Source: Euryarchaeota archaeon UBA106
GTDB taxonomy: Archaea > Thermoplasmatota > Poseidoniia > Poseidoniales > Thalassarchaeaceae
Reading direction: 5' to 3'
DNA: 64,000 nucleotides
NCBI GenBank assembly: GCA_002502365.1
Contig: DAOJ01000065.1
Location: 7,547 to 71,546, forward strand
Shown here: positions 5,498 to 52,426 of the stretch, in pieces
Layout: the number at the start of each line of letters is the position of its first letter
Numbering within the stretch: position 1 is the first letter of the stretch
Translations under genes and position numbers: made by a program
Notes under the pieces: generated by a model
Databases searched by the model: none
The model's input: the letters and a program-made list of their open reading frames with translations, nothing else
What the model was told of the DNA's origin: nothing

Positions 5498-8400
5498 GTG
5501 CCCGCGGAGTTGCAAAAATCCCAAAGAGGATTGATTCGATTAAATTTAGTCTGATGGATCCGAATGAAATACGAAAGATGTCAGCAGTTGAAGTAAAGAC
5601 AGCTGATACCTACAAGGATGATGGTCACGCATTCAAACAGGGTCTTATGGATCCCAAAATGGGTGTTATAGACCCCGGTATTCGATGTGAAACCTGTGGA
5701 AACAAACACGATGAATGTCCTAGCCACTTTGGACACATCGCTCTTGAGTTGCCTGTAATGCACATAGGTTTCACTCCTTTAATCAAAACCACATTGAAGT
5801 GTACATGCAATGAATGTAGCCAAATTTTGCTACACAGTGCTGCTGACACACATCCGTTAGATCCGGAAAAGTCTGAACAGGATTACTACCGAGATCGTGT
5901 TCATGATGTGATGAGAAAACATGGTGTTGGTTCGACAGAATTCAAGAAGATTATCAAAGAAATAGAGAAGGAATGCTCTAGTGCTAAGCGTGCAATTTGT
6001 ATGCACTGTGGAGCGGAGCAAGGAAAGATTATTCTCGATAAACCGACAACCTTCAAAGAGAAGAAAGCCGACAAAGGAGAACATAAACTCAATGCACGTG
6101 ATATTCGTGAATGGCTTGAGAAAATACCTGATGAACATCTGATTTTCTTAGGTATGGACAGTCATTCCAGTAGGCCTGAATGGTCCATAATGAAAGTTCT
6201 TCCAGTCCCTCCAATAACCGTTCGTCCATCAATCACACTAGACAGTGGAGATAGGTCCGAAGACGATTTAACTCACAAACTCGTTGACGTTTTGAGAATT
6301 AACCAACGACTAAGAGAAAATCGAGATGCAGGTGCGCCTCAATTAATTGTAGAGGATTTGTGGGAGTTGTTACAATATCACGTAACTACATACTTTGACA
6401 ATCAAACAAGTGGTATCCCACCCGCTAGGCATCGTTCCGGAAGGCCACTAAAGACTCTCTCGCAACGATTGAAGGGTAAAGAAGGTAGATTCAGGAGTAA
6501 TCTCTCAGGAAAGAGGGTTAACTTCTGTGCTAGAACCGTAATTAGCCCAGATCCAAATTTGGGGATTAACGAAGTTGGAGTGCCCGTGCGAACCGCAAAG
6601 GAACTCACGGTACCAATTCGTTCAACCAGTAGGAATCGTGAACAACTGAGAAGAATGATTCTTCGCGGGCCTGATGTACACCCAGGTGTTAACTACATCA
6701 TCCGCGGTGATAGTTTCCGTGTCAGAATTACAGACAGAACAAAATACATCTGGGCAGGTTTCCGATGCCTCAATCCAGACTGTCATTGTGGCAGTGATGA
6801 TGAACCATATCCAGGTTACAGACCTGACCTAAACACAGTATTACCGTCCCCTAATTTCCTTCCTGGTCTTGAGTTGAAAAAACAAATGAAAAGGAATGAA
6901 TTGGGAGATTTGGAAGACATTTGGTCTGTTGATTTAGATGCCACCCTTGCGAACCTACGTGGTGAAGATGAGAACGGACGCCCACTACCTGAAGATGATC
7001 CAAGAGCAGTAATTCATCACCGCTGGGTTTGGGAACAAAATAATCCTGATGAATATCTTCCTGAACACCTCGAAGTCAACTGCCCACACTGCGGTAGCCC
7101 GGCAATTGAGGATGAGTACGGTGAAGTTTACCGGACTGAAGTAGAAGACCGTCTTTCACCTTACGACAGAGAGGGCAATCCCCGTCCTGGTGTTATTGTA
7201 GAGAGACACCTAATTGATGGAGATGTTGCAATATTCAACAGACAACCATCACTACACCGAATGTCAATGCTTGTTCACGAAGTCAGAGTTATGCCAGGAA
7301 AGACATTCCGCTTTAACTTAGCAGATTGTACTCCATACAACGCTGACTTCGACGGAGATGAAATGAACCTACACGTAATTCAATCAGAGGAAGCAAGAGC
7401 TGAAGCTAAAATCTTGATGAGAGTTCAGGAACATATCATAACTCCTAGATATGGAGGCGCTGTTATTGGAGGAATCCATGACCATATTTCTGGTGCCTAT
7501 CTACTGACCCATGGTGAAAGAGTAATTCCAAAGGAATTAGCAATGGAAGTACTCGGTTCTGTTGGTTGGGATGGTGATATGCCTGAGGAGACTACTACGA
7601 AAGATGGAATAGTTGGGTACAAAGGAGCAGACTTACTAAGTTTAATTGTACCAGCAGGCTTCAAACTGAATTATACTAGCAGAAGCGGTGATGATGTCAA
7701 CGTAACATCGACAGGAATTGTCAGTGGAACTATCGACAAGCGTGGAATCGGTGCTGAAGATGGTCGCCTTCTTGATGCGGTAGTTCAAACTCACGGAACA
7801 GATAGGGGTGCAGAATTCCTAAATCGAATGACAAAAATGACAATTGCGATTTGCACAGCCTTAGGATTTACCACTGGTATCGATGATGAGGACTTACCAT
7901 CTGGAGCAATCAAAGAAATTTCTGAAATCAACGCTCGTGCCAGCGATGCAGTCGATGCTGAATTAGTAAAGTTCGGTAAAGATGGACGAAGATATGAAAC
8001 TAGACCTGGTAGAACCCCTTCAGAGACACTTGAGGAAAACATTCTCCAGATTCTAGATTCAGCCAAGGCCGAATCAGGAAACGTTGCAAAATCATACCTT
8101 GGAGAAGACAACTCTGCTGTAATCATGGCTACTTCAGGTGCTCGTGGTTCTATGGATAACCTAGCTATGATGGCAGGTTCTATTGGACAACCTAAAGTTC
8201 GTGGTAAGAGGTTAGAAAGAGGATACCAAGACAGGGTGTTGTCTCACTTCCCCCGCAACGTAAAGGGCGCTGAGGAGAAAGGTTTTGTTTCTTCTTCATT
8301 CAAACAAGGTCTACAACCTACAGAGTTCTTCATGCTATCAGTATCGGGAAGAGAATCTTTGGTTGATACTGCAGTTCGTACCTCAAAGTCTGGTTACATG

Positions 8401-8592
8401 CAGCGACGATTGATTAACGCAATGGATGATCTGAAAGTATCCGAAGATGAAAATGGATCGGTAAGAAATACTGCCGACAGAATTATTCAATTCGAATATG
8501 GAGAGGATGGAATCGATCCGGCTAGAAGCAGAAAAGGACTTCCGTTTGACATTACGAAGGTTCTAGATGATGCATTGGGAGGTGATGAGTGA
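5494..8592 (+). CDS. rpoA1: DNA-directed RNA polymerase subunit A' (Rpb1 N-terminal part)
   Basis: ATGA overlap with the rpoB stop. N-terminal Zn sites [17 protein letters not shown] and CTCNECSQ...CMHCG. Active-site region [10 protein letters not shown] ... [10 protein letters not shown] present. 1032 aa, including a ~130-aa Cys-containing insertion (see findings). Confidence 0.95.
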
Positions 8593-10169
8593 TGGTTGTT
8601 AAGAGTGCAACAAAGAAGAAACTCATGGATCTTGGTATTGCTGAGGAATACGCTCACCGACTAGCTGATGATCGAAAATGGGATAATGTCAAGGTTCTTA
8701 CCGCAGGAGAAATAGCACAAATTTGTGCTACTGATTCTGGTATGGCACAAAACATCTCTGAAGTAATTCAAGGTTCAACTAAAGCAGCCCAAAAGGAGCA
8801 GAAAGCAGAGAAGACTTTGATTCGACGCCGTGTTACTTCCCGCAGAAGAAAGAAGAGTTTACTTCCTTTACAAGAATATGATTCTGAGGATAAAATGAAA
8901 CAAATCCACCGAGATTTGGATATTGAAAACCCAATGTTCACAAGCCTTTCTGATGCTGCAGTAAAAGAAAATATCAGAATTTCACCCAAGACAATTAATG
9001 ACTTAGTCAATGGTTTACTTTCTAGAGGTCAGAAAAAACTGACACCTGCTCAAGCGCGCAAGGTTGTTACTTGCGCAGCAGCAGATATGAAAATGTCTCG
9101 AGCAGACCCACATGAAGCGGTTGGAATTACCACAGCTCAATCGATTGGAGAACCGGGTACTCAAATGACTATGCGTACTTTCCACTATGCTGGTGTAGCA
9201 ACCGTCAACGTTACACAAGGTCTTCCTCGCGTTATCGAAATCGTTGATGCAAGAAAGGTTCCTAAGACGCCTACAATGCTCGTCTACCTTAATGAAAATG
9301 ATTCCAAGGGCAAACCTTTGCGAAGTAACGAGAAGAAGGTTCAGGCCATTGCTGCCGCAATAGAAACCACCACCACCAGAGATATTGCTTCGATAGATGT
9401 TGATGTTGCGCAAAGGCATCTTAATTTGGAATTAAATACCAAAAATATTCGATTGAAGAAAATGACTGGTGCAGAAGTCAGAGACAAATTACAAAGAGCT
9501 CTTCGACTATACATTCAGGCTGACGACGAAGATAAGCCTAAGGTTCTAAAGGTCATTCCAGGTGTGACAAAAGAGGATGATTTAGCCCAATTAGCAAATG
9601 ACCCACCTACATACACTGCTCTATTGCAATTAGAAGATAAAATCAAGAAATTACGTTTGAAAGGCCTACCCGATATTGTTAGAGCGAATGTTCAGGGTCC
9701 AAACAAGGACACTGGCGAATACTACATTGCAACCATTGGTTCTAACCTATCCAAGGTCAGTATGTTCGATGGCGTTGACAGAGGTCGCACTTACACCAAT
9801 AACATCAATGAAATTTATGGATATCTTGGTGTAGAAGCTGCCAGACAAGCCATAGTTAATGAGATGAAAGATACACTCGAGGGCGCAGGTCTAGAGGTAG
9901 ATACTAGACACTTAATTACAGTCGCAGATGTAATGACAAGCGAAGGTGAGGTTCGAGCAATTGGCCGTCATGGTGTTAGTGGAACTAAACACAGTATCTT
10001 GGCACGATCTGCATTCGAAGTGTCAGTTAACCATCTATTGCGAGCCGGTATTATTGGAGAAAGAGACCATCTACGTGGTGTAACTGAGAATATCATAGTT
10101 GGTCAACCTGTTGCCTTAGGGACAGGTAGCGTAGATCTATTCTACATACCTGAAGAGGCAGGTGCTTGA
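8589..10169 (+). CDS. rpoA2: DNA-directed RNA polymerase subunit A'' (Rpb1 C-terminal part) with ~125-aa N-terminal HhH-like extension
   Basis: ATGA overlap with the rpoA' stop. Canonical A'' core ([28 protein letters not shown] ... trigger-loop region). N-terminal 60 aa are paralogous to the RpoH N-terminus (VKSxTKKxLxxLGIxxExAHxLADD). Confidence 0.9.
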
Positions 10170-43686: not shown

Positions 43687-43739
43687 CAAGCAATGGTTAT
43701 GTGTTTGAATCGGTCGCAATAAATCAAGAGGTGGCGCTA

Positions 43740-44729
43740 ATGGGTCGGTCTACGAGGTTCATCATCGCGATTTTTGTAGTTGGCCTATTAGCAATCCCCG
43801 CATTTGCGAATAGCGGAGGTCCACCATACCTGAACTCCGATAATCAAGAGACGGCAAAATACGGTTGTACTTGTCACTATTCTAGCCCTGGGGATAGAGC
43901 TGTAGTCATGATCTCCGGAGTGCCGGTTATGTACGAATTAGGTCAATCGTATGATTTTGTAGTCACGGTTGCAGATTCCGCCACACTAGCTGGTGCTGAT
44001 GGAAATACGAAAGCAGGTTTCCTAATGACAGATAATGGGGCTGGAATGTTTTCTTGGGATGATTCTCAAGACATTAGAGAAGCAGATGGAGATCCCAATG
44101 CGATTTCTCACTCCGCAACTGGTGAAGGCGTATGGGCAATTAGTTGGATGGCTCCATCTGAAGATTCTGGAACAATCCTCTTCAGTATAGCAGGGAATTC
44201 TGTTAATGGCGATGGAGCCCCAAATGAATACGATTACTGGAACATCCTAACTTTTTCAATAAATGCTCCCGGGTCTGTTACCGAAGGAGACAGTGAGGCC
44301 ACTCTGCAAACTAGGACTATAGCAGTCGGTGATTATCAAACATTATTCGTGATTGAAGAAAGCGAATCTGAGAAAGAAAAAGAAAGACAAAGACATCTTT
44401 CAGATGCAGTTTTTGAAAGTGGGAATTTATTCTACTGGACCTCTTTAACCGCCTTAATCGTAGGAGCAGTCTTACAAAGGGAAATCTTGGAAAGACGTCA
44501 CAACACCGGTCCCGAATATTTAGCCATGGAATTAGCATATCCTCAAGGAATTAGGCGCGGATTTATTTCCCTAGTGGCATTCTTCCTAGCAATAACTTGG
44601 ACTGCAGATGGGGGGCAACATGATTTCATAATCGGATGTACTTGGTTCATCGGATTTTGGGCAATGTACGGTGTTTACAGAACCGTACGTTCCGCAAAAA
44701 CTGAACCTACCGTCCATGACGTGATGTGA
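43740..44729 (+). CDS. Exported protein with C-terminal 3-TM anchor, hypothetical
   Basis: Signal peptide MGRSTRFIIAIFVVGLLAIPAFA. Beta-rich extracellular domain. Three C-terminal hydrophobic helices. Confidence 0.55.
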   Translation: MGRSTRFIIAIFVVGLLAIPAFANSGGPPYLNSDNQETAKYGCTCHYSSPGDRAVVMISGVPVMYELGQSYDFVVTVADSATLAGADGNTKAGFLMTDNGAGMFSWDDSQDIREADGDPNAISHSATGEGVWAISWMAPSEDSGTILFSIAGNSVNGDGAPNEYDYWNILTFSINAPGSVTEGDSEATLQTRTIAVGDYQTLFVIEESESEKEKERQRHLSDAVFESGNLFYWTSLTALIVGAVLQREILERRHNTGPEYLAMELAYPQGIRRGFISLVAFFLAITWTADGGQHDFIIGCTWFIGFWAMYGVYRTVRSAKTEPTVHDVM

Positions 44730-44730
44730 G

Positions 44731-45846
44731 ATGGACCAATCTAATCTTGTAAATTTTGAGTCATCAGTCCCTAAACACTTTTCAGAACTTCATACACTTT
44801 TTCGTACAACAGCGTTTGTGTTCTTACTTTCAACGATAATTTCTTCAATTTGGCTTGAAACCATAGTTTTAGATTGGGTAATCTCCCAATCATCTTCTAG
44901 TGAAATATCAGTCTACGGTCCATATGACTGGGTCGAAATGAGATTACTATCAATTATCATATTATCATCTCTAATCACACTGCCATTTTTCTCAATCGGT
45001 TTCCGTTCTTTCGCCATTCAGGGTCTGCTTCCAAAAGAAAGGCTTTGGTTAGATCTGTACCTGTTACTCAATGCTCTATTGCTTCCAATTATTTTGTATT
45101 GGGTTTGGTTTATATTGATCCCAAATTATACAGAAACCAGTTTACAATTGGATTCTATATCTGGAGTAAATCCACGATATGATGCCTCTGAAATTTTTTC
45201 TTTTGCATCTGGAATCTCATGGGTATTAATTTTAACATTCAGCTCAACTTTATTCCTTTCTATATCTCGATTATTTGGACTAGTAGAAGAAGGAAGGAGC
45301 CGATTTCGAAATAGAATTTTAGCTATTACAGGTGGATTGCTAATTTTGACTTTACCTGAACCGTTTGAAGGTCTACGAATATTGATTGCGATAGTGGTTG
45401 TTGCTATAGTTGAATATATTTCTCGAACAGTTCCTAATGGCCCATTGGGGCTCCGAAATCCAATTTTTCCAGAAATCGTAAACAAAGATGGCTTCAGAAC
45501 AAAAGTTCTCTTGATGAATTGTTCTTGTGAAGGCGCTTGCCCATCTTTTGACAAATCCTGGATTAACCAAGATATTTCCGTTTTGCATGCTAACGCCCTG
45601 TGTTTGGATGACACAGAGCAACTCGCACTGAGGGATTTGATTTCTCGTAATTCAATAACTCAATTGACTATCTCAGGCTGTAATGGTTCGCCATTGCCCT
45701 TGGATTTACGAAATTTTCTTACCACTCATAACACTTCTTTAGATGGACTGAATTGGTTAGATCAACTAAATGTAGATAACATAAATTGGAGGAAAACTTC
45801 CCTACAAGCATATTCCTCACAATTCAATCAGGTAGACTCGAGATAA
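44731..45846 (+). CDS. TatC-like membrane protein with ~130-aa Cys-containing cytoplasmic C-terminal extension (tentative)
   Basis: Six hydrophobic helices. FAIQGLLPKERLW resembles the TatC F..PGL...E+ motif, and N-terminal HFSELHTLFR resembles TatC EHLxELRxR. Confidence 0.4.
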   Translation: MDQSNLVNFESSVPKHFSELHTLFRTTAFVFLLSTIISSIWLETIVLDWVISQSSSSEISVYGPYDWVEMRLLSIIILSSLITLPFFSIGFRSFAIQGLLPKERLWLDLYLLLNALLLPIILYWVWFILIPNYTETSLQLDSISGVNPRYDASEIFSFASGISWVLILTFSSTLFLSISRLFGLVEEGRSRFRNRILAITGGLLILTLPEPFEGLRILIAIVVVAIVEYISRTVPNGPLGLRNPIFPEIVNKDGFRTKVLLMNCSCEGACPSFDKSWINQDISVLHANALCLDDTEQLALRDLISRNSITQLTISGCNGSPLPLDLRNFLTTHNTSLDGLNWLDQLNVDNINWRKTSLQAYSSQFNQVDSR

Positions 45847-45898
45847 CTGTATATTAGACTAAATCATAGTTCAATTATCCGTTCCCTTCAAGGTAGCG

Positions 45899-47923
45899 AT
45901 GTGGCTCGGTTTCAATATGAGGGCACTCCAGTCTACTTTAGCCGGATTACTCCTCTTAAGTGCCCTCTTTGTCAACCTTAATTCCGAATTGGTAGATAAT
46001 TGGGCTGAAAACAGGTCTGAATCAGAAGATTCGAAACTTACTCTTTTAGGCGTTCAAAATGAAGAAAATTGGTTGGTACTGCAAGTAGAATTCCCTGGCA
46101 ATTCTTTCCCTGAATCTATAGTTATTGATTCATTGATAGGGGACAATTCAGCAGAAGAATACATTGAGCAAATGACTGCCGGTGAATCAACGCTTTCTGT
46201 TACACTTTTCGATGAAGTTTGGCAATCTCCCTACGATGTAAAGAAATGGGGTGAAGATGTTGGTAGTGAGCGAGATTACGGTTCAGACGGCAATGGGGCT
46301 GAAGATCTCCTAAGAACAGTTGCCAATGAACAATTGGAAGGATATGATTTATCTGACTGGGACTTAAACAACGATGGAGTAATTGACCGAATACTGATTC
46401 TTCATTCAGCGCAGCCTCAGGAAATTAACGGTGGTGCAGATTCCCTATGGAGTCATTTTACAGGCATGCAAGAACCACTAACAATTGATAAATGGACCAT
46501 CGAGCATTTCACCATAGCATCAGCCTATTCCGGAGTTGGTACAATTGTTCATGAAATGCTTCACCAAATGGGTGCTTACGACTTATATGATGTACACAGT
46601 GATATTCCAACCAGTAATTGGAACGGCATTGGTGACTGGGGAATAATGGCGAGCGGAAATTGGAATGGCAACGGTGCAGTACCTTCCCTTCCATCATCTT
46701 CAACTCTCGATCTGATAGGTGTTAATAGAGGAGTTCTCGTTACTCCGCTAATTTCCGATTATTCAATTACAGGGATTTCTGAGGGGGGCTCCTACCTAGA
46801 AATACCCATTGCACCTAATGAATGGGTACGGTTTACATTACGTGTCGATTCAGGATTTGATTCAGCCCTCCCTGGTCACGGCGTAATCGTCGAAATTCAA
46901 GATAAAAATAATGGAGATCCTAATCGAAATCTTGTGAATACTGACCCTGATAAGGCGTGGTTAAAAATCATTGAAGCCGACGGAAATGCAGCCTTGGAAA
47001 GAGGAAGGAATAGCGGAGAATCTACTGATACTTTCTCGGAGGGTGATCAGTTGGGGGCAAATGGGATGCAAATACGCGATAGTCGCGGCCGGCTAGTACA
47101 ATGGACTGCCACAATTACAAATCTAGATTCCAATGAGGCTGTAATTACTTTCACTTTCCCAGAAAATCTCTCTACAGTTGAAGTTCTACCTCCAAGAGGT
47201 CCTATAGAAATTCTTGGACAAGAATCTGTTTTCGCAACCGTAATCTCAGACAAAGCTTGTCAGTTAACGATTGATATTTCCACCACAACTAATGCAGCTG
47301 AGTCCTCTCCAAGAGTCATTTCAATAGATCAAGGAGAATCAATCATAGAACTCGCAACTGCTAATCAAATTAGTCAAGGGTCAGGCTACCTCAGGGGTTC
47401 AGTCGGGTGTGAGGGGGATGAACCTTGGCTCATTGACCTCGATTGGTTTTCAGTCGGACATAGAATTACCTCAGAGCACCTTTCAGCAATTATTCCATGG
47501 GATAAGGATTCACAACTGAGCCTTGCAACCAAATGCACTGGCGAAGAATCTAGAACCTATTCTATAGCCGTTGAAGGTGCCCTTTCAAGAATTGCTGTAG
47601 CAGAAAATGGGGGTGAGTTAGAAGCCTGCCCTACCGCGGTTTTAGCAATTTCACCTGATGGCTTATTGACTCCTGGAATGACTGCTGAAGGAGAAATCGT
47701 CTTCGTCGATCCATTTGGCTTAGAGACAAGAGTTCCAGTAACACTTACCGCCCAATCTTCCTTCAATGGGGACAGTCCACTAGCTTGGTTAGTCCAACCA
47801 AGTAACGCAATATCGGTTATTTTCGTCTTATTAGCGATATCATTGATTTCGAGTTCTAACTCGAAACCTAATGGTGGAAATTTTTCAACAGAGCAAGAAG
47901 ATAATGACTCACAATTAGATTGA
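45899..47923 (+). CDS. Secreted zinc metalloprotease (HEXXH; M6/InhA-like), C-terminal TM anchor
   Basis: Signal peptide. GVGTIVHEMLHQMGAYDLYD (HExxH...G..DxYD). C-terminal hydrophobic helix. Confidence 0.65.
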   Translation: MWLGFNMRALQSTLAGLLLLSALFVNLNSELVDNWAENRSESEDSKLTLLGVQNEENWLVLQVEFPGNSFPESIVIDSLIGDNSAEEYIEQMTAGESTLSVTLFDEVWQSPYDVKKWGEDVGSERDYGSDGNGAEDLLRTVANEQLEGYDLSDWDLNNDGVIDRILILHSAQPQEINGGADSLWSHFTGMQEPLTIDKWTIEHFTIASAYSGVGTIVHEMLHQMGAYDLYDVHSDIPTSNWNGIGDWGIMASGNWNGNGAVPSLPSSSTLDLIGVNRGVLVTPLISDYSITGISEGGSYLEIPIAPNEWVRFTLRVDSGFDSALPGHGVIVEIQDKNNGDPNRNLVNTDPDKAWLKIIEADGNAALERGRNSGESTDTFSEGDQLGANGMQIRDSRGRLVQWTATITNLDSNEAVITFTFPENLSTVEVLPPRGPIEILGQESVFATVISDKACQLTIDISTTTNAAESSPRVISIDQGESIIELATANQISQGSGYLRGSVGCEGDEPWLIDLDWFSVGHRITSEHLSAIIPWDKDSQLSLATKCTGEESRTYSIAVEGALSRIAVAENGGELEACPTAVLAISPDGLLTPGMTAEGEIVFVDPFGLETRVPVTLTAQSSFNGDSPLAWLVQPSNAISVIFVLLAISLISSSNSKPNGGNFSTEQEDNDSQLD

Positions 47924-48000
47924 TTTACACTTTAACTAATATCGCATAATACCCCAGTCCCTTTAGTTCATTGATAGGTCGTTTATTCAGACATTTATTC

Positions 48001-48822
48001 ATGGTGGAAACTACAGGTGTTTCTTGGGGAGATTGTTCGATAGACCTCTCATTCCCTAAGCCAAGGTTGTCGTCCGTTCTTCTCATTGATCAGAACACTC
48101 AGGATTTTCAGAGTGTATTGTTGAGAATGGTTGCCAATGAATTAGAATCATCTAGACCTGTACACTGGATAGATGGAGGTATGTCATTCGATCCATCTCC
48201 ACTCCTTCCTCTGTTACGAATGCGTAATTGTGACACTCTAAATCCTCTGAGAAGTTTTCACATATCTCGAGGATTTACAGCACATCAAACAGTATCTATC
48301 GTAAAGAGGTTGGCTGATGAGGCTAAATTAAGTCCTCCTCCTGATCGAATAATTAACGGTCGGCTAATTATTATTTCAGAAGTATCAAGGATGTTCATGG
48401 ACTCACAACTTAAGAAACCAGAAGGTCGCTCTTTGTTAACGGAAACACTTGAGCGTTGCAGGGCCTTGAGTAAGGATTCCGAGTCCTTAGTGATAATCAC
48501 TTCAAGTCGTAATTCATCACCACCTCTTAGTAAGGACATGCGTCATATTTTGAAACGATTTTCAGATGACACTCTGAGAATCAGCAATCTTTTATCTAAA
48601 AACCGTGATAGAAGTTTTGTTAGGAAAAAACTGCATTTACTCTCCATTGATAAGGAGGTTATTTGGGCAAATTTACCAGTAGGTCAAACTTCACTTCTAG
48701 AGTTTCGTCATAACCAAGAATCTAGGCTAGATTGTCTCATCGAACCGTTAGCCAGAAGCTCTTCACTCCAACCAAATGGAGAAAGGATAGCTGTCGCTGC
48801 TCGAACTGCCAATCGTGTATAG
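48001..48822 (+). CDS. RadB/RecA-fold paralog with degenerate Walker A (putative pseudo-ATPase)
   Basis: MVETTGVSWGD (cf. RadB MLSTGVKSLDE). VHWIDGGMSFDPSPL (cf. YVDTEGGFSPERL). RLIIISEVSRMF Walker-B-like. But the P-loop position reads LIDQNTQDF instead of GxxSGKTT. Confidence 0.55.
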   Translation: MVETTGVSWGDCSIDLSFPKPRLSSVLLIDQNTQDFQSVLLRMVANELESSRPVHWIDGGMSFDPSPLLPLLRMRNCDTLNPLRSFHISRGFTAHQTVSIVKRLADEAKLSPPPDRIINGRLIIISEVSRMFMDSQLKKPEGRSLLTETLERCRALSKDSESLVIITSSRNSSPPLSKDMRHILKRFSDDTLRISNLLSKNRDRSFVRKKLHLLSIDKEVIWANLPVGQTSLLEFRHNQESRLDCLIEPLARSSSLQPNGERIAVAARTANRV

Positions 48823-51095
48823 AATTCTGTATCTCCTTTCTCCTCTGAAATTGAATCTGTCGAAAATTCTATTTCTGATTTCAATCTGACTCTATCTACA
48901 GGATTCTTCCTATTCCATCCTGTTACAGCAAAGTGTATTTTTCTTCCTGGAGGTGTGATTTGATTCAATTCCTTAGAACGTAGAAGAGCGCCTGCTGTTA
49001 GATTCATAACACGATGATTTCCAGCTTCATATCTTACTCTTCTAGCTACAATTAATTGCTCCAGTGGAATTTCTCCACGCTTCATAAGAGAAATTTCAGT
49101 CACAAGTCTTTGTGCAGCTATTTCGGGACCAATTCCAAATGGATCATTTGCTAAGTCCTCTAACATATTCTCCTGTAATTTCCTAATCCAATAACAGGTT
49201 GAATGTTGACGCAATTCTATACCTCTGACCTTCCATTCATCACCTATCTTTGCATAATACTTAGTCAGGGCACCTACGCCTGTAGTTCTGTTCGGAATAA
49301 AAGCAATCCAGTCATATTCGTATTCCAATTCTAGTGGTATTCCAATTAATACTTCAATTCTTTCAATCAAGCGTTGGTATGATTTGCGCTTTTCTTCTTG
49401 ACTTCTATCCTCACGGTCTTTAATCCAAATAGCATCAACTATCGCGTGTATACAATCCCACCCTTCCTTATTTGCTTCTTCAATTGTGGTTAGGAGAATT
49501 TCACGAGACCAAGCGCAAATTGCTTCGTGACATTCGATACGACCAAATCGGGCATTCCGATAACCAGTATATCCAAAACAGGTAACTAAAATCCACTTGA
49601 GAACGTTTTGCCTTCTGTCCCATGAATCTCCTTTTTTTCTTCTTCTTGCTTTCAGAGAATTTCTTCTTTCGATTATAGGTGCTACGACCCTTCCAAGGAA
49701 TCCATGCTTACGAGTGCAAACATGTAATCCAAGTTCGGGAGCAATTAATTTTCTATGTTCGTCATTTTTTATTCTTTTTTGAATTTCATAAGAGGCAGCT
49801 AAAACATCCAGTGGTAATCTCCCATCTTTCATCTCGTAATTTCCAATTTTTGGATTACAGCATGAGCAATTCATAGTTTCAGGACTTATGTTTCTAGTGG
49901 CAATAATACTAGGGAATAAACTTGCAAAATCAAGTTCTATTGCTCCTTCATGAACTCCAACAATTGGGTCGAGATACAATCCCCCTCTGTCTGCTAAAAT
50001 TAATTCATCAGCATTTTTCAAATCCTCAGGTCTGTTCTTTTTCCAAGGAATTAGGACACCATCTTCCATTGATTGTCTTATTTGCATGGCTGATATCGCG
50101 GAACCAGGAGAGAGTCTAGACAAATCGGCGGCAGGCAAACCGGAAGTTCTTGCTAATTCCATTATCCCTTCTATACCTCCTTCCTTACCTATGAAGGAAC
50201 GCTTCATGTCTATGTGTAATCTACCTTCTAGGGGATGGTACGCTTCTTTTCTCATAAGGCGTCCATAACTCCAATCTACTCTTTCTTTTGTTCGTGGACT
50301 ACTGTCGCTTCCGTTCCTACTAATGTCGAGATTCATTTCAGATTTTTGAGCTAGACGAATCAAAGCGGGAATATCTACACTGTCTCCATCATAGGTTATT
50401 ACGATATCAGGGTCAATTTCTTTCATTTTTTTTTGAAAATCATTCAACATATGTGCTGAACATGTATATGCTTCTGAAATTAAATTGTAACTGATTTGTT
50501 TTTCAGAATTTATAATTCCTCTATCCAATATTTTGATGCTTGAAATCGGTGCGTCAAATTTCCTTTTTCCATTTGTATCGTAACAATTAACTCTAATCTC
50601 TACTATTCGTAAAGGTGGAAATTCCCAATCTACTTTGTTTCTCGTATCTAAAGGAATTATTCGTTTGCCACAAATCCGTACTCTTCCAAATGGATGTGTT
50701 TTGAGATCTAACAAAAACCTCTGGGAAATCTTTGGGTCCACAGAAAAAATTTCAAAATTTTTCCAAGAACCATTTGCATCAATAATTTCAGCGATTTTTA
50801 CAATCTTCGATATTTTTTGCAATTTAACTGCCAAAACCTCAACTTTTCTCTCTGATTCATGAGATGTACGATGTTTTTCCAATTTTAATGAAATTGGACC
50901 AAATGGCCTTTGGTATTCCGGTCTTGAAAGAGCCCCAGCTAATTCTCTAAGTCTGTGTGGTTCCCCTTTAACGTATATTGTGAAGAACCATGGGGTCATG
51001 ATATGTCTAATTTCTCCGTCATCCATTTTTATCCAAAGGCACATGCATTCACTTTTGTTATCTAAATGACAGTCGATTATCCATCCCTCATTCAT
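48708..51095 (-). CDS. polB: Family B DNA polymerase homolog, divergent; Exo I, Exo III and motif C degenerate
   Basis: Motif A DFASLFPSIIATRNISPET. Exo II ITYDGDSVDIPAL. KxY TKYYAKIGDEW..RGIE present. But Exo I YDTNG (FDIET expected), Exo III QSMEDG (Y lost), motif C AIVDAI (YGDTDS expected). Confidence 0.75.
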   Translation of the reverse strand: MNEGWIIDCHLDNKSECMCLWIKMDDGEIRHIMTPWFFTIYVKGEPHRLRELAGALSRPEYQRPFGPISLKLEKHRTSHESERKVEVLAVKLQKISKIVKIAEIIDANGSWKNFEIFSVDPKISQRFLLDLKTHPFGRVRICGKRIIPLDTRNKVDWEFPPLRIVEIRVNCYDTNGKRKFDAPISSIKILDRGIINSEKQISYNLISEAYTCSAHMLNDFQKKMKEIDPDIVITYDGDSVDIPALIRLAQKSEMNLDISRNGSDSSPRTKERVDWSYGRLMRKEAYHPLEGRLHIDMKRSFIGKEGGIEGIMELARTSGLPAADLSRLSPGSAISAMQIRQSMEDGVLIPWKKNRPEDLKNADELILADRGGLYLDPIVGVHEGAIELDFASLFPSIIATRNISPETMNCSCCNPKIGNYEMKDGRLPLDVLAASYEIQKRIKNDEHRKLIAPELGLHVCTRKHGFLGRVVAPIIERRNSLKARRRKKGDSWDRRQNVLKWILVTCFGYTGYRNARFGRIECHEAICAWSREILLTTIEEANKEGWDCIHAIVDAIWIKDREDRSQEEKRKSYQRLIERIEVLIGIPLELEYEYDWIAFIPNRTTGVGALTKYYAKIGDEWKVRGIELRQHSTCYWIRKLQENMLEDLANDPFGIGPEIAAQRLVTEISLMKRGEIPLEQLIVARRVRYEAGNHRVMNLTAGALLRSKELNQITPPGRKIHFAVTGWNRKNPVDRVRLKSEIEFSTDSISEEKGDTEFYTRLAVRAATAILSPFGWSEELLANGSMRQSSLDSWL

Positions 51096-51375
51096 CCCCT
51101 AACCTCTCAATTTGTTTTTCAATTTGCGCAATTCTTTCATATGCCTCAACTAACATTGAAAGTAGGATTGGTTCAATTGGGTCTACGTTTGGAATCATGC
51201 CACAAGCAGCAGCTCTAGACCTTGTAGCGTTCATCATCGATTCGTAAGCCAAACGATCTTGAGGTCTCAGAGTTCTATAGAATCGCCTCCACTCTTCTAT
51301 TCGAGACTCTCCTCTCATTCTCCAAGTTGCGACTGTCCTACCCATGGATTTGTTTGGCGAATTAAATCGCTTCAC
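51088..51375 (-). CDS. Hypothetical protein (95 aa), between endA and polB in the same transcriptional direction
   Basis: ORF overlaps the polB start by 8 nt. Basic and helical. No family recognised. Confidence 0.4.
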   Translation of the reverse strand: MKRFNSPNKSMGRTVATWRMRGESRIEEWRRFYRTLRPQDRLAYESMMNATRSRAAACGMIPNVDPIEPILLSMLVEAYERIAQIEKQIERLGDE

Positions 51376-51427: not shown

Positions 51428-52426
51428 TCAGAGTTTTCTCGGGTTTGTCCAACGTGAATCTGCAGGAGGCCTTGTTATTGCGAGGTAATTCCAGGAGCCT
51501 TCATTATTTACAGGATGTAACCAAATTTTGTTAACACCTGAAGCTAATCTAGATGCTAGGCAGGCACCAGCCCAGTTCTTTGGCGCCTCATCTGGTAAAA
51601 CTACTAGGTATGGAGCGTGGTCATCTCCTATGCGCTTTTCATAACATCTCCATTTGGAACCATACTTGAATCCAGGTCTAATCACAAGACCTCTATCTAG
51701 TAAATCTAAGAGAATTAAAGCACCCTGGCTGAGTGGTGACTTACCATCCACAATTTCACTGGCTATCGTATCCAAAAAAATGCCTTCTTCAGTAGGTATG
51801 CCTAATTGTTCTATTTCCCAATTTTCGGATGGGAAAATCATACCGTCCGCAGAGTTAATTCCATCAGATAAGTTTGGTAATTTTTCACCTAATCTTTCCT
51901 CTTTGAAAATACCTAATGGAGATTCAGATGATAACTGGTAGCTAACGACACTAAGTTCTTCATCTACTATCATTACTTCTGGAATCCTGTTTGAGTTTCT
52001 TACCTCTACAGCCCAATTATGTAATTCGGCTGGGTTAAGCATTTCTGAATCTAAAAACCATCTGACTTCAGCAGTTGGTTGAGAATCTTTTGGGTGAGAA
52101 TTCGATGGCCACCTACACGCCCATGTTTGAGGTTGATAATCTAAATCAAAAAGATCTAGATTTCCCGTAAGTACAACCTTATTCCCTGGGACTCTCAAAG
52201 CTTCAAGAATGCAATACTCTTGTAGTAGCATACCGTTCATGGAAAGTGCATTTGTTTTCCAATCATTATCTGGCAATTCTATATTTCGGTGGTGGTGGAC
52301 AAAAAGTGTCTCCGCAGGAGATAGAGCTAGACTTCCATTTTTCAAAAGTCTCCCAATTACTGACTTTTGCCAGAGCCTTTGTGAGGCGGGGCCATCATAT
52401 TCCCAAACCTCAGGAGTGCCGCCCAT
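51428..52426 (-). CDS. endA: tRNA-splicing endonuclease (EndA), two-domain homodimeric type
   Basis: C-terminal catalytic domain LLDRGLVIRPGFKYGSKWRCY...GDDHAPYLVV fits the EndA L..RG..V+.G.KFG.DF..Y...H signature. 332 aa suggests an N-terminal degenerate repeat plus a C-terminal catalytic repeat. Confidence 0.6.
   Translation of the reverse strand: MGGTPEVWEYDGPASQRLWQKSVIGRLLKNGSLALSPAETLFVHHHRNIELPDNDWKTNALSMNGMLLQEYCILEALRVPGNKVVLTGNLDLFDLDYQPQTWACRWPSNSHPKDSQPTAEVRWFLDSEMLNPAELHNWAVEVRNSNRIPEVMIVDEELSVVSYQLSSESPLGIFKEERLGEKLPNLSDGINSADGMIFPSENWEIEQLGIPTEEGIFLDTIASEIVDGKSPLSQGALILLDLLDRGLVIRPGFKYGSKWRCYEKRIGDDHAPYLVVLPDEAPKNWAGACLASRLASGVNKIWLHPVNNEGSWNYLAITRPPADSRWTNPRKL

Follow-up and report, generated by a model that had tools for sequence, protein, structure and literature searches.

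A RecA-fold pseudo-ATPase encoded tail-to-tail with polB2 in a Marine Group II genome is probably iRadA, a predicted subunit of a translesion polymerase complex

What is a RecA-fold protein for once its ATPase site has gone, and to which family does it belong? The question is raised by an open reading frame at 48001..48822 on the (+) strand of a 64-kb stretch of a Marine Group II (Poseidoniales, Thalassarchaeaceae-like) genome, which was analysed as a whole and is called the window here. The frame encodes 273 aa plus stop, scans against Pfam and NCBIfam return nothing at E<=10, and proteins of its subfamily stand in public records as 'hypothetical protein'. A preliminary description had taken it for a RadB with a destroyed Walker A motif, reminiscent of the Shu complex and uncharacterized in archaea. 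We give it another name, with a probability of roughly 85%: iRadA, a subunit with a catalytically dead Rad51/RadA core that belongs to the archaeal translesion complex of PolB2, a polymerase of Dpo2 type. The identity is settled by the adjacent genes, those for PolB2 and PPB2.

The gene runs from an ATG at 48001 to a stop at 48820-48822. We prefer this start over a TTG upstream at 47971, because the homologues are likewise 272-275 aa long. All four peptides quoted in the preliminary description are found in the translation, namely MVETTGVSWGD (residues 1-11), LIDQNTQDF (28-36), VHWIDGGMSFDPSPL (54-68) and RLIIISEVSRMF (121-132). A database search for homologues yielded 27 clusters, each unnamed or 'hypothetical'. 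Wherever a genome or metagenome locus covers the ORF, its frame is unbroken, and the alignment keeps 31 invariant columns at identities down to 33%; for these reasons we reject the readings as a pseudogene and as a spurious ORF. One distant cluster (P0027) has Rad51 (PF08423) as its sole Pfam match. JGI names its members 'predicted ATP-dependent serine protease', which is probably a misannotation carried over from bacterial RadA/Sms.

Taken singly, the sequence matches RadA weakly, with P. furiosus RadA found at E=0.018 and in the correct register. A profile of 16 family members reaches RAD51D (8e-6), RadA (9e-6) and DMC1 in the PDB and hits no chain outside the Rad51/RadA family at E<0.2. Similarly, an AF2 model computed from the family alignment (pLDDT 81.7, pTM 0.79), in which the core begins at about residue 6, retrieves exclusively RecA, RadA, RAD51, DMC1 and RAD51 paralogues in a Foldseek search of the PDB, with E-values of about 1e-12 to 1e-10 and alignments that cover 233-248 columns of RecA, RadA, RAD51 and DMC1 targets longer than 300 aa. 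Family profile, AF2 model and Foldseek all agree on the RecA/Rad51 fold, as had been claimed, and the best profile and structure matches stay within this superfamily, with no non-RecA family among them. From the model we are confident in assigning a Rad51/RadA ATPase core without the N-terminal helical (HhH) domain.

The nucleotide site of this core is another matter. At the former Walker A position, residues 28-36 (48082..48108, (+) strand), the protein reads LIDQNTQDF, without a Gly-rich loop, Lys or Ser/Thr. HMMER places the stretch LLIDQNTQDFQSVLL on IVGGPGSGKTQVCL of RAD51D, the region of its GPGSGKTQ P-loop, and in the AF2 model the P-loop position is taken by QNTQD (32-36), a loop that joins strand 25-31 to helix 37-49. 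The entire protein was searched for the pattern G-x4-GK[ST] and none was found. The destroyed Walker A motif, the core observation of the preliminary description, is confirmed, and two losses can be added to it. The invariant W56-I57-D58-G59-G60 (48166..48180, (+)) stands where RadA has 'IDTE', being aligned to 'WIDTEN', and replaces the catalytic Glu by Gly. In the Walker B-like strand R121-E127 (RLIIISE; 48361..48381, (+)), aligned by HMMER to 'VVVVDS' of RAD51D and 'LLIVDS' of RadA, the position of the Walker B Asp is taken by S126, which is nearly invariant in the family. The same active-site losses recur in the homologues, which make up about 27 clusters, and at 38 genome loci of Poseidoniales (Marine Group II), and aligned orthologues conserve the loss of the P-loop throughout the window's subfamily. 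Because the losses are conserved through the family, chance and sequencing artefacts are excluded as explanations.

Traces of the motif persist elsewhere in the order. MGIIa iRadAs hold partial P-loop remnants (GNGFAGKN, GYGHAGRS, GPGASGGR), other MGIIb clades hold EGGKS or EGSKKST, and none of the relatives inspected by eye has a complete G-x4-GK[ST] at this position. Compared with the full erasure in the window's clade, these remnants look like a stepwise decay within one order, as far as can be read from the sequences. Remnants such as GNGFAGKN and GYGHAGRS, or EGGKS and EGSKKST, might also be taken to mean that iRadA is a switch and not a pure scaffold, with a nucleotide or phosphate ligand bound at a non-canonical site. 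For the window protein this is extremely improbable, given that DQNTQDF offers no arrangement of Gly, Lys, Ser or Thr and that neither the catalytic Glu nor the Walker B Asp is left.

The two neighbouring genes connect this dead core to a polymerase. The polB2 gene (48708..51095, (-) strand) encodes 795 aa plus stop, a B-family polymerase of the PolB2/Dpo2 group with Pfam DNA_pol_B and exo domains, whose identity to the Poseidoniales PolB2 EHR76801, compared over the first 399 aa of the latter, is 39% (E=3e-92). Its catalytic DxD is replaced by I552-V553-D554 (49434..49442, (-)), in which the first Asp is changed, a hallmark of PolB2. The supplement of PMC11791011 lists 'IVD'/'IID' for PolB2, and the window's HAIVDAIWI parallels KWILVACFGYQGF...HGIVDSIWV in the PolB2 rows given there. 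Alignment with EHR76801 locates the D(K/R) motif at D369-R370 of 'LADRGG' (ADRGG 368-372; 49986..49991, (-)). Membership in family B, the replaced first Asp, the D(K/R)GG and the similarity to known PolB2 are thus all in place.

Upstream of polB2 lies the gene for PPB2 (arCOG07300), at 51088..51345 on the (-) strand, coding for 85 aa plus stop with the N-terminus MGRTVATWR. The product is 37% identical (E=2e-18) to the Poseidoniales PPB2 EHR76802. A listing of ORFs starts it at an upstream GTG at 51375 (95 aa); homology and the functionally important MGRT arm led us to place the start at the ATG at 51345. With its 85 aa the protein lies within the range of about 85-95 aa expected of this helical family, and it has the N-terminal MGRT arm with Arg3 and Arg9 that is highlighted in PMC11791011. 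A Pfam scan of its 85 aa gave nothing useful, and the homologous gene in one locus of our set (L001) carries PF26485 DUF8156. The PPB2 stop overlaps the polB2 start region by 8 nt, an arrangement that suggests translational coupling.

In this context, Makarova et al. reported in 2014 inactivated RadA homologues in the PolB2 operon, linked with arCOG07300 (PMC4104785). Timinskas, Timinskas and Venclovas introduced the names iRadA and PPB2 in 2025 and modelled a PolB2-iRadA-(PPB2)3 heteropentamer for 40 species, Poseidoniales among them (PMC11791011). According to their supplement 2, the Poseidoniales trio was modelled with a ranking score of 0.866, and the window's iRadA, PolB2 and PPB2 each match the Poseidoniales proteins given for this model. 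For iRadA itself the relationship is a distant one: BLASTP against the modelled Poseidoniales iRadA EHR76800 gives E=2e-17, with the window's subfamily just 27% identical over 132 aa. Comparison of the family profile by hhalign with nine published iRadAs from six phyla, taken from that same supplement 2, yields a probability of 99.75% with E=3e-27 over 183 columns.

The published iRadAs (arCOG07763/arCOG04294/arCOG08101; S. islandicus F0NED7, Poseidoniales EHR76800) resemble the window protein in having a core without N-terminal domain, in the loss of the ATPase residues, in a gene beside those for PolB2 and PPB2 and in the C-terminal region, where the window protein has a candidate PIP-like motif. 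There are differences as well. The Gly-rich loop is fully erased in the window protein, whereas the MGIIa members keep G-x-G-x-A-G-K/R, and the window protein extends beyond the PIP-like motif by a tail of 37 aa that is antisense to the end of polB2. The accessions HIE81749, HIL50027, HIC76033 and MEO2243004 of the window's clade, and the motifs of this clade, were looked for in the supplements of PMC11791011, and the parts of these at hand contain none of them. The literature searched yielded no biochemical work on iRadA, and as late as 2026 a review described the complex as predicted. Even so, PMC4104785 and, by name and model, PMC11791011 have already brought the family, its inactivation and its likely role into print, which removes the claim that such a protein is uncharacterized in archaea; the window protein is an ordinary, divergent and database-unannotated member.

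Could it still be a degenerate RadB orthologue that serves RadA as a non-catalytic recombination mediator, in the manner of Shu or the Rad51 paralogues? RadB, a short paralogue of RadA in euryarchaea, retains Walker A and B and binds ATP. Like the window protein, it has a RecA-fold core, a similar size and no N-terminal HhH domain, and the best single PDB profile match of the family is indeed a Rad51 paralogue, RAD51D. However, no chain named RadB occurs among the 37 PDB sequences that the family profile finds at E<=1, headed by RAD51D, RadA and DMC1, and profile and fold searches together favour these and RecA. An intact Walker A (GxxxxGKT/S) and Walker B are missing, the sequence is no closer to RadB than to RadA, Rad51 or their paralogues, and the genomic context is another. 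The 99.75% match to published iRadAs and the linkage to polB2 and PPB2, and not to recombination genes, in all loci examined speak against a recombination mediator as well, as does the modelling in PMC11791011, in which PolB2 is specific for iRadA and not for RadA. Near iRadA, the window holds no recombination genes. We regard a RadB-type mediator as very unlikely, and neither the RadB assignment nor the Shu-like role of the preliminary description can be upheld. The RecA/Rad51 fold and the conserved non-ATPase site are upheld, and its more general idea of a structural, non-catalytic subunit is plausible. A canonical radA or radB was sought across the 64-kb window with the family HMM at maximum sensitivity and with a Walker A regular expression, and none was found.

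The assignment as iRadA gains from how consistently the trio is kept. In the window it spans 48001-51345 in the layout iRadA -> <- PolB2 <- PPB2. A scan with one genome per species gave 38 loci at 93% to 28% identity, all from Marine Group II/Poseidoniales MAGs and single-cell genomes and many of them labelled Thalassarchaeaceae; the iRadA-polB2-PPB2 trio is present in the loci L001-L003 and likewise in the MGIIb and MGIIa loci. In every MGIIb locus that holds both genes, iRadA and polB2 converge and overlap by 115-145 nt, the exceptions being loci cut by a contig end and one locus, L024, with an apparently frameshifted polB2. In the latter (Thalassarchaeaceae MAG PACB-20200310-m80, about 6771-9063) the polB2 frame is interrupted, its long ORF stopping 324 nt before the iRadA gene, and iRadA is intact; a frameshift, pseudogenisation or faulty assembly could each account for the interruption.

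For the sister type, MGIIa, 77 metagenome loci (L042-L118) were fetched with EHR76800 as query, to which L042 and L043 are 100% identical. Synteny with PolB2 was seen in 62 of the 63 that have a complete iRadA ORF, and in the remaining one the flanking PolB ORF was not found. The genes converge here too, with PPB2 upstream of PolB2, and the distance between iRadA and PolB2 ranges from -222 to +60 nt. In PMC11791011, exemplars such as EHR76800 are filed under the operon group '3b (PPB2-PolB2-iRadA)'. Going by the loci of this exemplar for the meaning of the group label, the Poseidoniales entries in '3b' imply that the convergent layout has evidently been catalogued already. Since iRadA is convergent to polB2-PPB2, co-expression from a shared operon cannot be assumed here.

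The wider neighbourhood bears on a second proposal, that of Makarova et al. (2014), by which the trio serves not translesion synthesis but the initiation or regulation of replication or the rescue of stalled forks. In many euryarchaea the operon is associated with orc1/cdc6-type genes (PMC4104785, PMC11791011). The window trio, however, is not flanked by any of the genes reported as enriched near polB2, that is orc1/cdc6, SRAP or DUF72, and genetics and biochemistry in Sulfolobus assign PolB2 the role of a translesion extender. A replication role is therefore improbable in our estimate. What does flank the trio is a set of three ORFs upstream of iRadA (43701-47923, (+)), comprising a 342-aa ORF without Pfam match, a divergent TatC-like protein of 371 aa (PF00902 at E=1.7e-9) and an M6-type metallopeptidase of 674 aa. 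On the other side, a 332-aa ORF at 51428-52426 (-) has the tRNA intron endonuclease C-terminal catalytic domain (PF01974, residues 241-310) as its sole Pfam match, which leaves some 240 residues at its N-terminal end unassigned.

Returning to iRadA as a polymerase subunit, a link to the sliding clamp is suggested by short motifs in both proteins. In iRadA, the candidate PCNA-binding motif Q229-T-S-L-L-E-F-R236 (48685..48708, (+)) fits QxxLxxF, its L232 is invariant, and in the alignment it falls on 'NQYTIDEFRG', close to the C-terminal end of the distant homologue P0027. The PMC11791011 supplement shows similar iRadA C-termini, NQTTLEEFLRR* and GQLTLEVF*, and a clamp-binding motif in this region is common among iRadAs without being obligatory. 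The motif of the window protein is, however, internal, with 37 residues after it, and has an Arg at position 8 in place of an aromatic or hydrophobic residue; going by the motif itself, we infer that QTSLLEFR may bind PCNA. PolB2 ends on a canonical PIP box of its own, Q-S-S-L-D-S-W-L (48711..48734, (-)), directly before the stop; most MGIIb loci keep this box in the form Q[ST][ST]L[DE]xW. The coding sequences of the two motifs are on opposite strands, no more than about 50 nt apart. By a loose QxxLxxF/Y/W pattern, a pattern match alone, both proteins are positive in 22 of 36 distinct MGIIb loci, and the same pattern finds no PolB2 and 6 of 57 iRadA loci in MGIIa. In PMC11791011, PIP-like motifs in PolB2 and iRadA together are described as rare.

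The tail-to-tail arrangement has a further consequence for the protein. In the window the two genes share 115 nt on both strands (48708-48822), and residues 237-273 of iRadA, a C-terminal tail of 37 aa (48709..48819, (+)), are encoded on the strand opposite the final 37 codons of polB2. Within the MGIIb clade the tail extends 37-47 residues beyond the PIP-like motif, and it is absent from MGIIa iRadAs. In the AF2 model most of residues 242-273 have a pLDDT below 50 and form its disordered stretch. Third codon positions of the two genes coincide within the overlap, the codons for a conserved (F/Y)Y of PolB2 supply the iRadA stop in antisense, and the apparent conservation of the tail mirrors the PolB2 motif SPFGW.EE on the polB2 strand. 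When PolB2 codons were resampled synonymously for 24 distinct loci, 31-100% of the trials left the frame unbroken as far as the observed stop, and these 24 loci gave no codon-level sign of selection for an open tail frame. The PolB2 sequence by itself leads one to expect an open frame, and a passive effect of the overlap is enough to account for the tail. That the 115-145 nt overlap in MGIIb is itself functional, through obligatory antisense pairing of the mRNA 3' ends or through a tail that tunes access to PCNA, is in our view rather unlikely. If pairing did take place, it would couple or limit the expression of both iRadA and polB2. Beyond the long, conserved overlap of the two genes and the presence of PIP-like motifs in both proteins, the locus offers little that is new.

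How the parts might work together can be sketched from models in the literature and from genetic work in Sulfolobus, by which iRadA would neither hydrolyse ATP nor form filaments. PMC11791011 predicts that the PolB2 segment before the D(K/R) motif attaches to iRadA in the manner of an oligomerisation motif of Rad51. By sequence, GVLIPW...LADRGG in the window's PolB2 appears to be the counterpart of this stretch, and PolB2 would dock on iRadA via this beta-alpha segment (GVLIPW...ADRGG) in mimicry of the oligomerisation motif. The models further suggest that a PPB2 trimer reaches with one of its MGRT N-terminal arms into the cleft that PolB2 and iRadA form near the DNA. PCNA, as predicted in PMC11791011, would be recruited by a C-terminal clamp-binding motif of either iRadA or PolB2; here QTSLLEFR of iRadA, QSSLDSWL of PolB2 or both would tether the complex to the clamp. 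As the introduction of PMC11791011 recounts, PolB2 of Sulfolobus is an active, damage-inducible translesion extender. The holoenzyme may accordingly extend mismatched or lesion-containing primer ends and so provide damage tolerance at the price of mutagenesis. The most probable role of iRadA would then be non-catalytic, as a subunit that acts as scaffold in a translesion PolB2 holoenzyme and tethers it to PCNA.

Comparable solutions exist in other lineages. The parallel with Pol V was drawn in PMC11791011: there, too, a recombinase-fold accessory subunit of a translesion polymerase is bound via an oligomerisation-like motif, but Pol V employs the active cellular RecA with ATP and a Y-family polymerase, whereas the archaeal complex would combine a dedicated dead paralogue with a B-family enzyme. 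The Shu complex Csm2-Psy3 and XRCC2 share the Rad51 fold, a degenerate nucleotide site and a structural role, and complexes with RAD51D and XRCC3 rank near the top of the sequence and fold matches of iRadA. Those proteins act on Rad51 filaments in recombination, iRadA is tied to a polymerase, and the likeness holds at the level of the superfamily only. ImuA/ImuA' of the bacterial ImuA-ImuB-DnaE2 mutasome is RecA-like with a degenerate ATPase and is encoded with a mutagenic polymerase cassette. Its polymerase belongs to family C, and its partners differ.

The value of the identification is mainly corrective, in that a 'hypothetical protein' invisible to Pfam and NCBIfam can now be named. For the organisms it means that Marine Group II archaea, which are abundant in the surface ocean, carry a full PolB2-iRadA-PPB2 damage-tolerance module, which fits with their exposure to sunlight.
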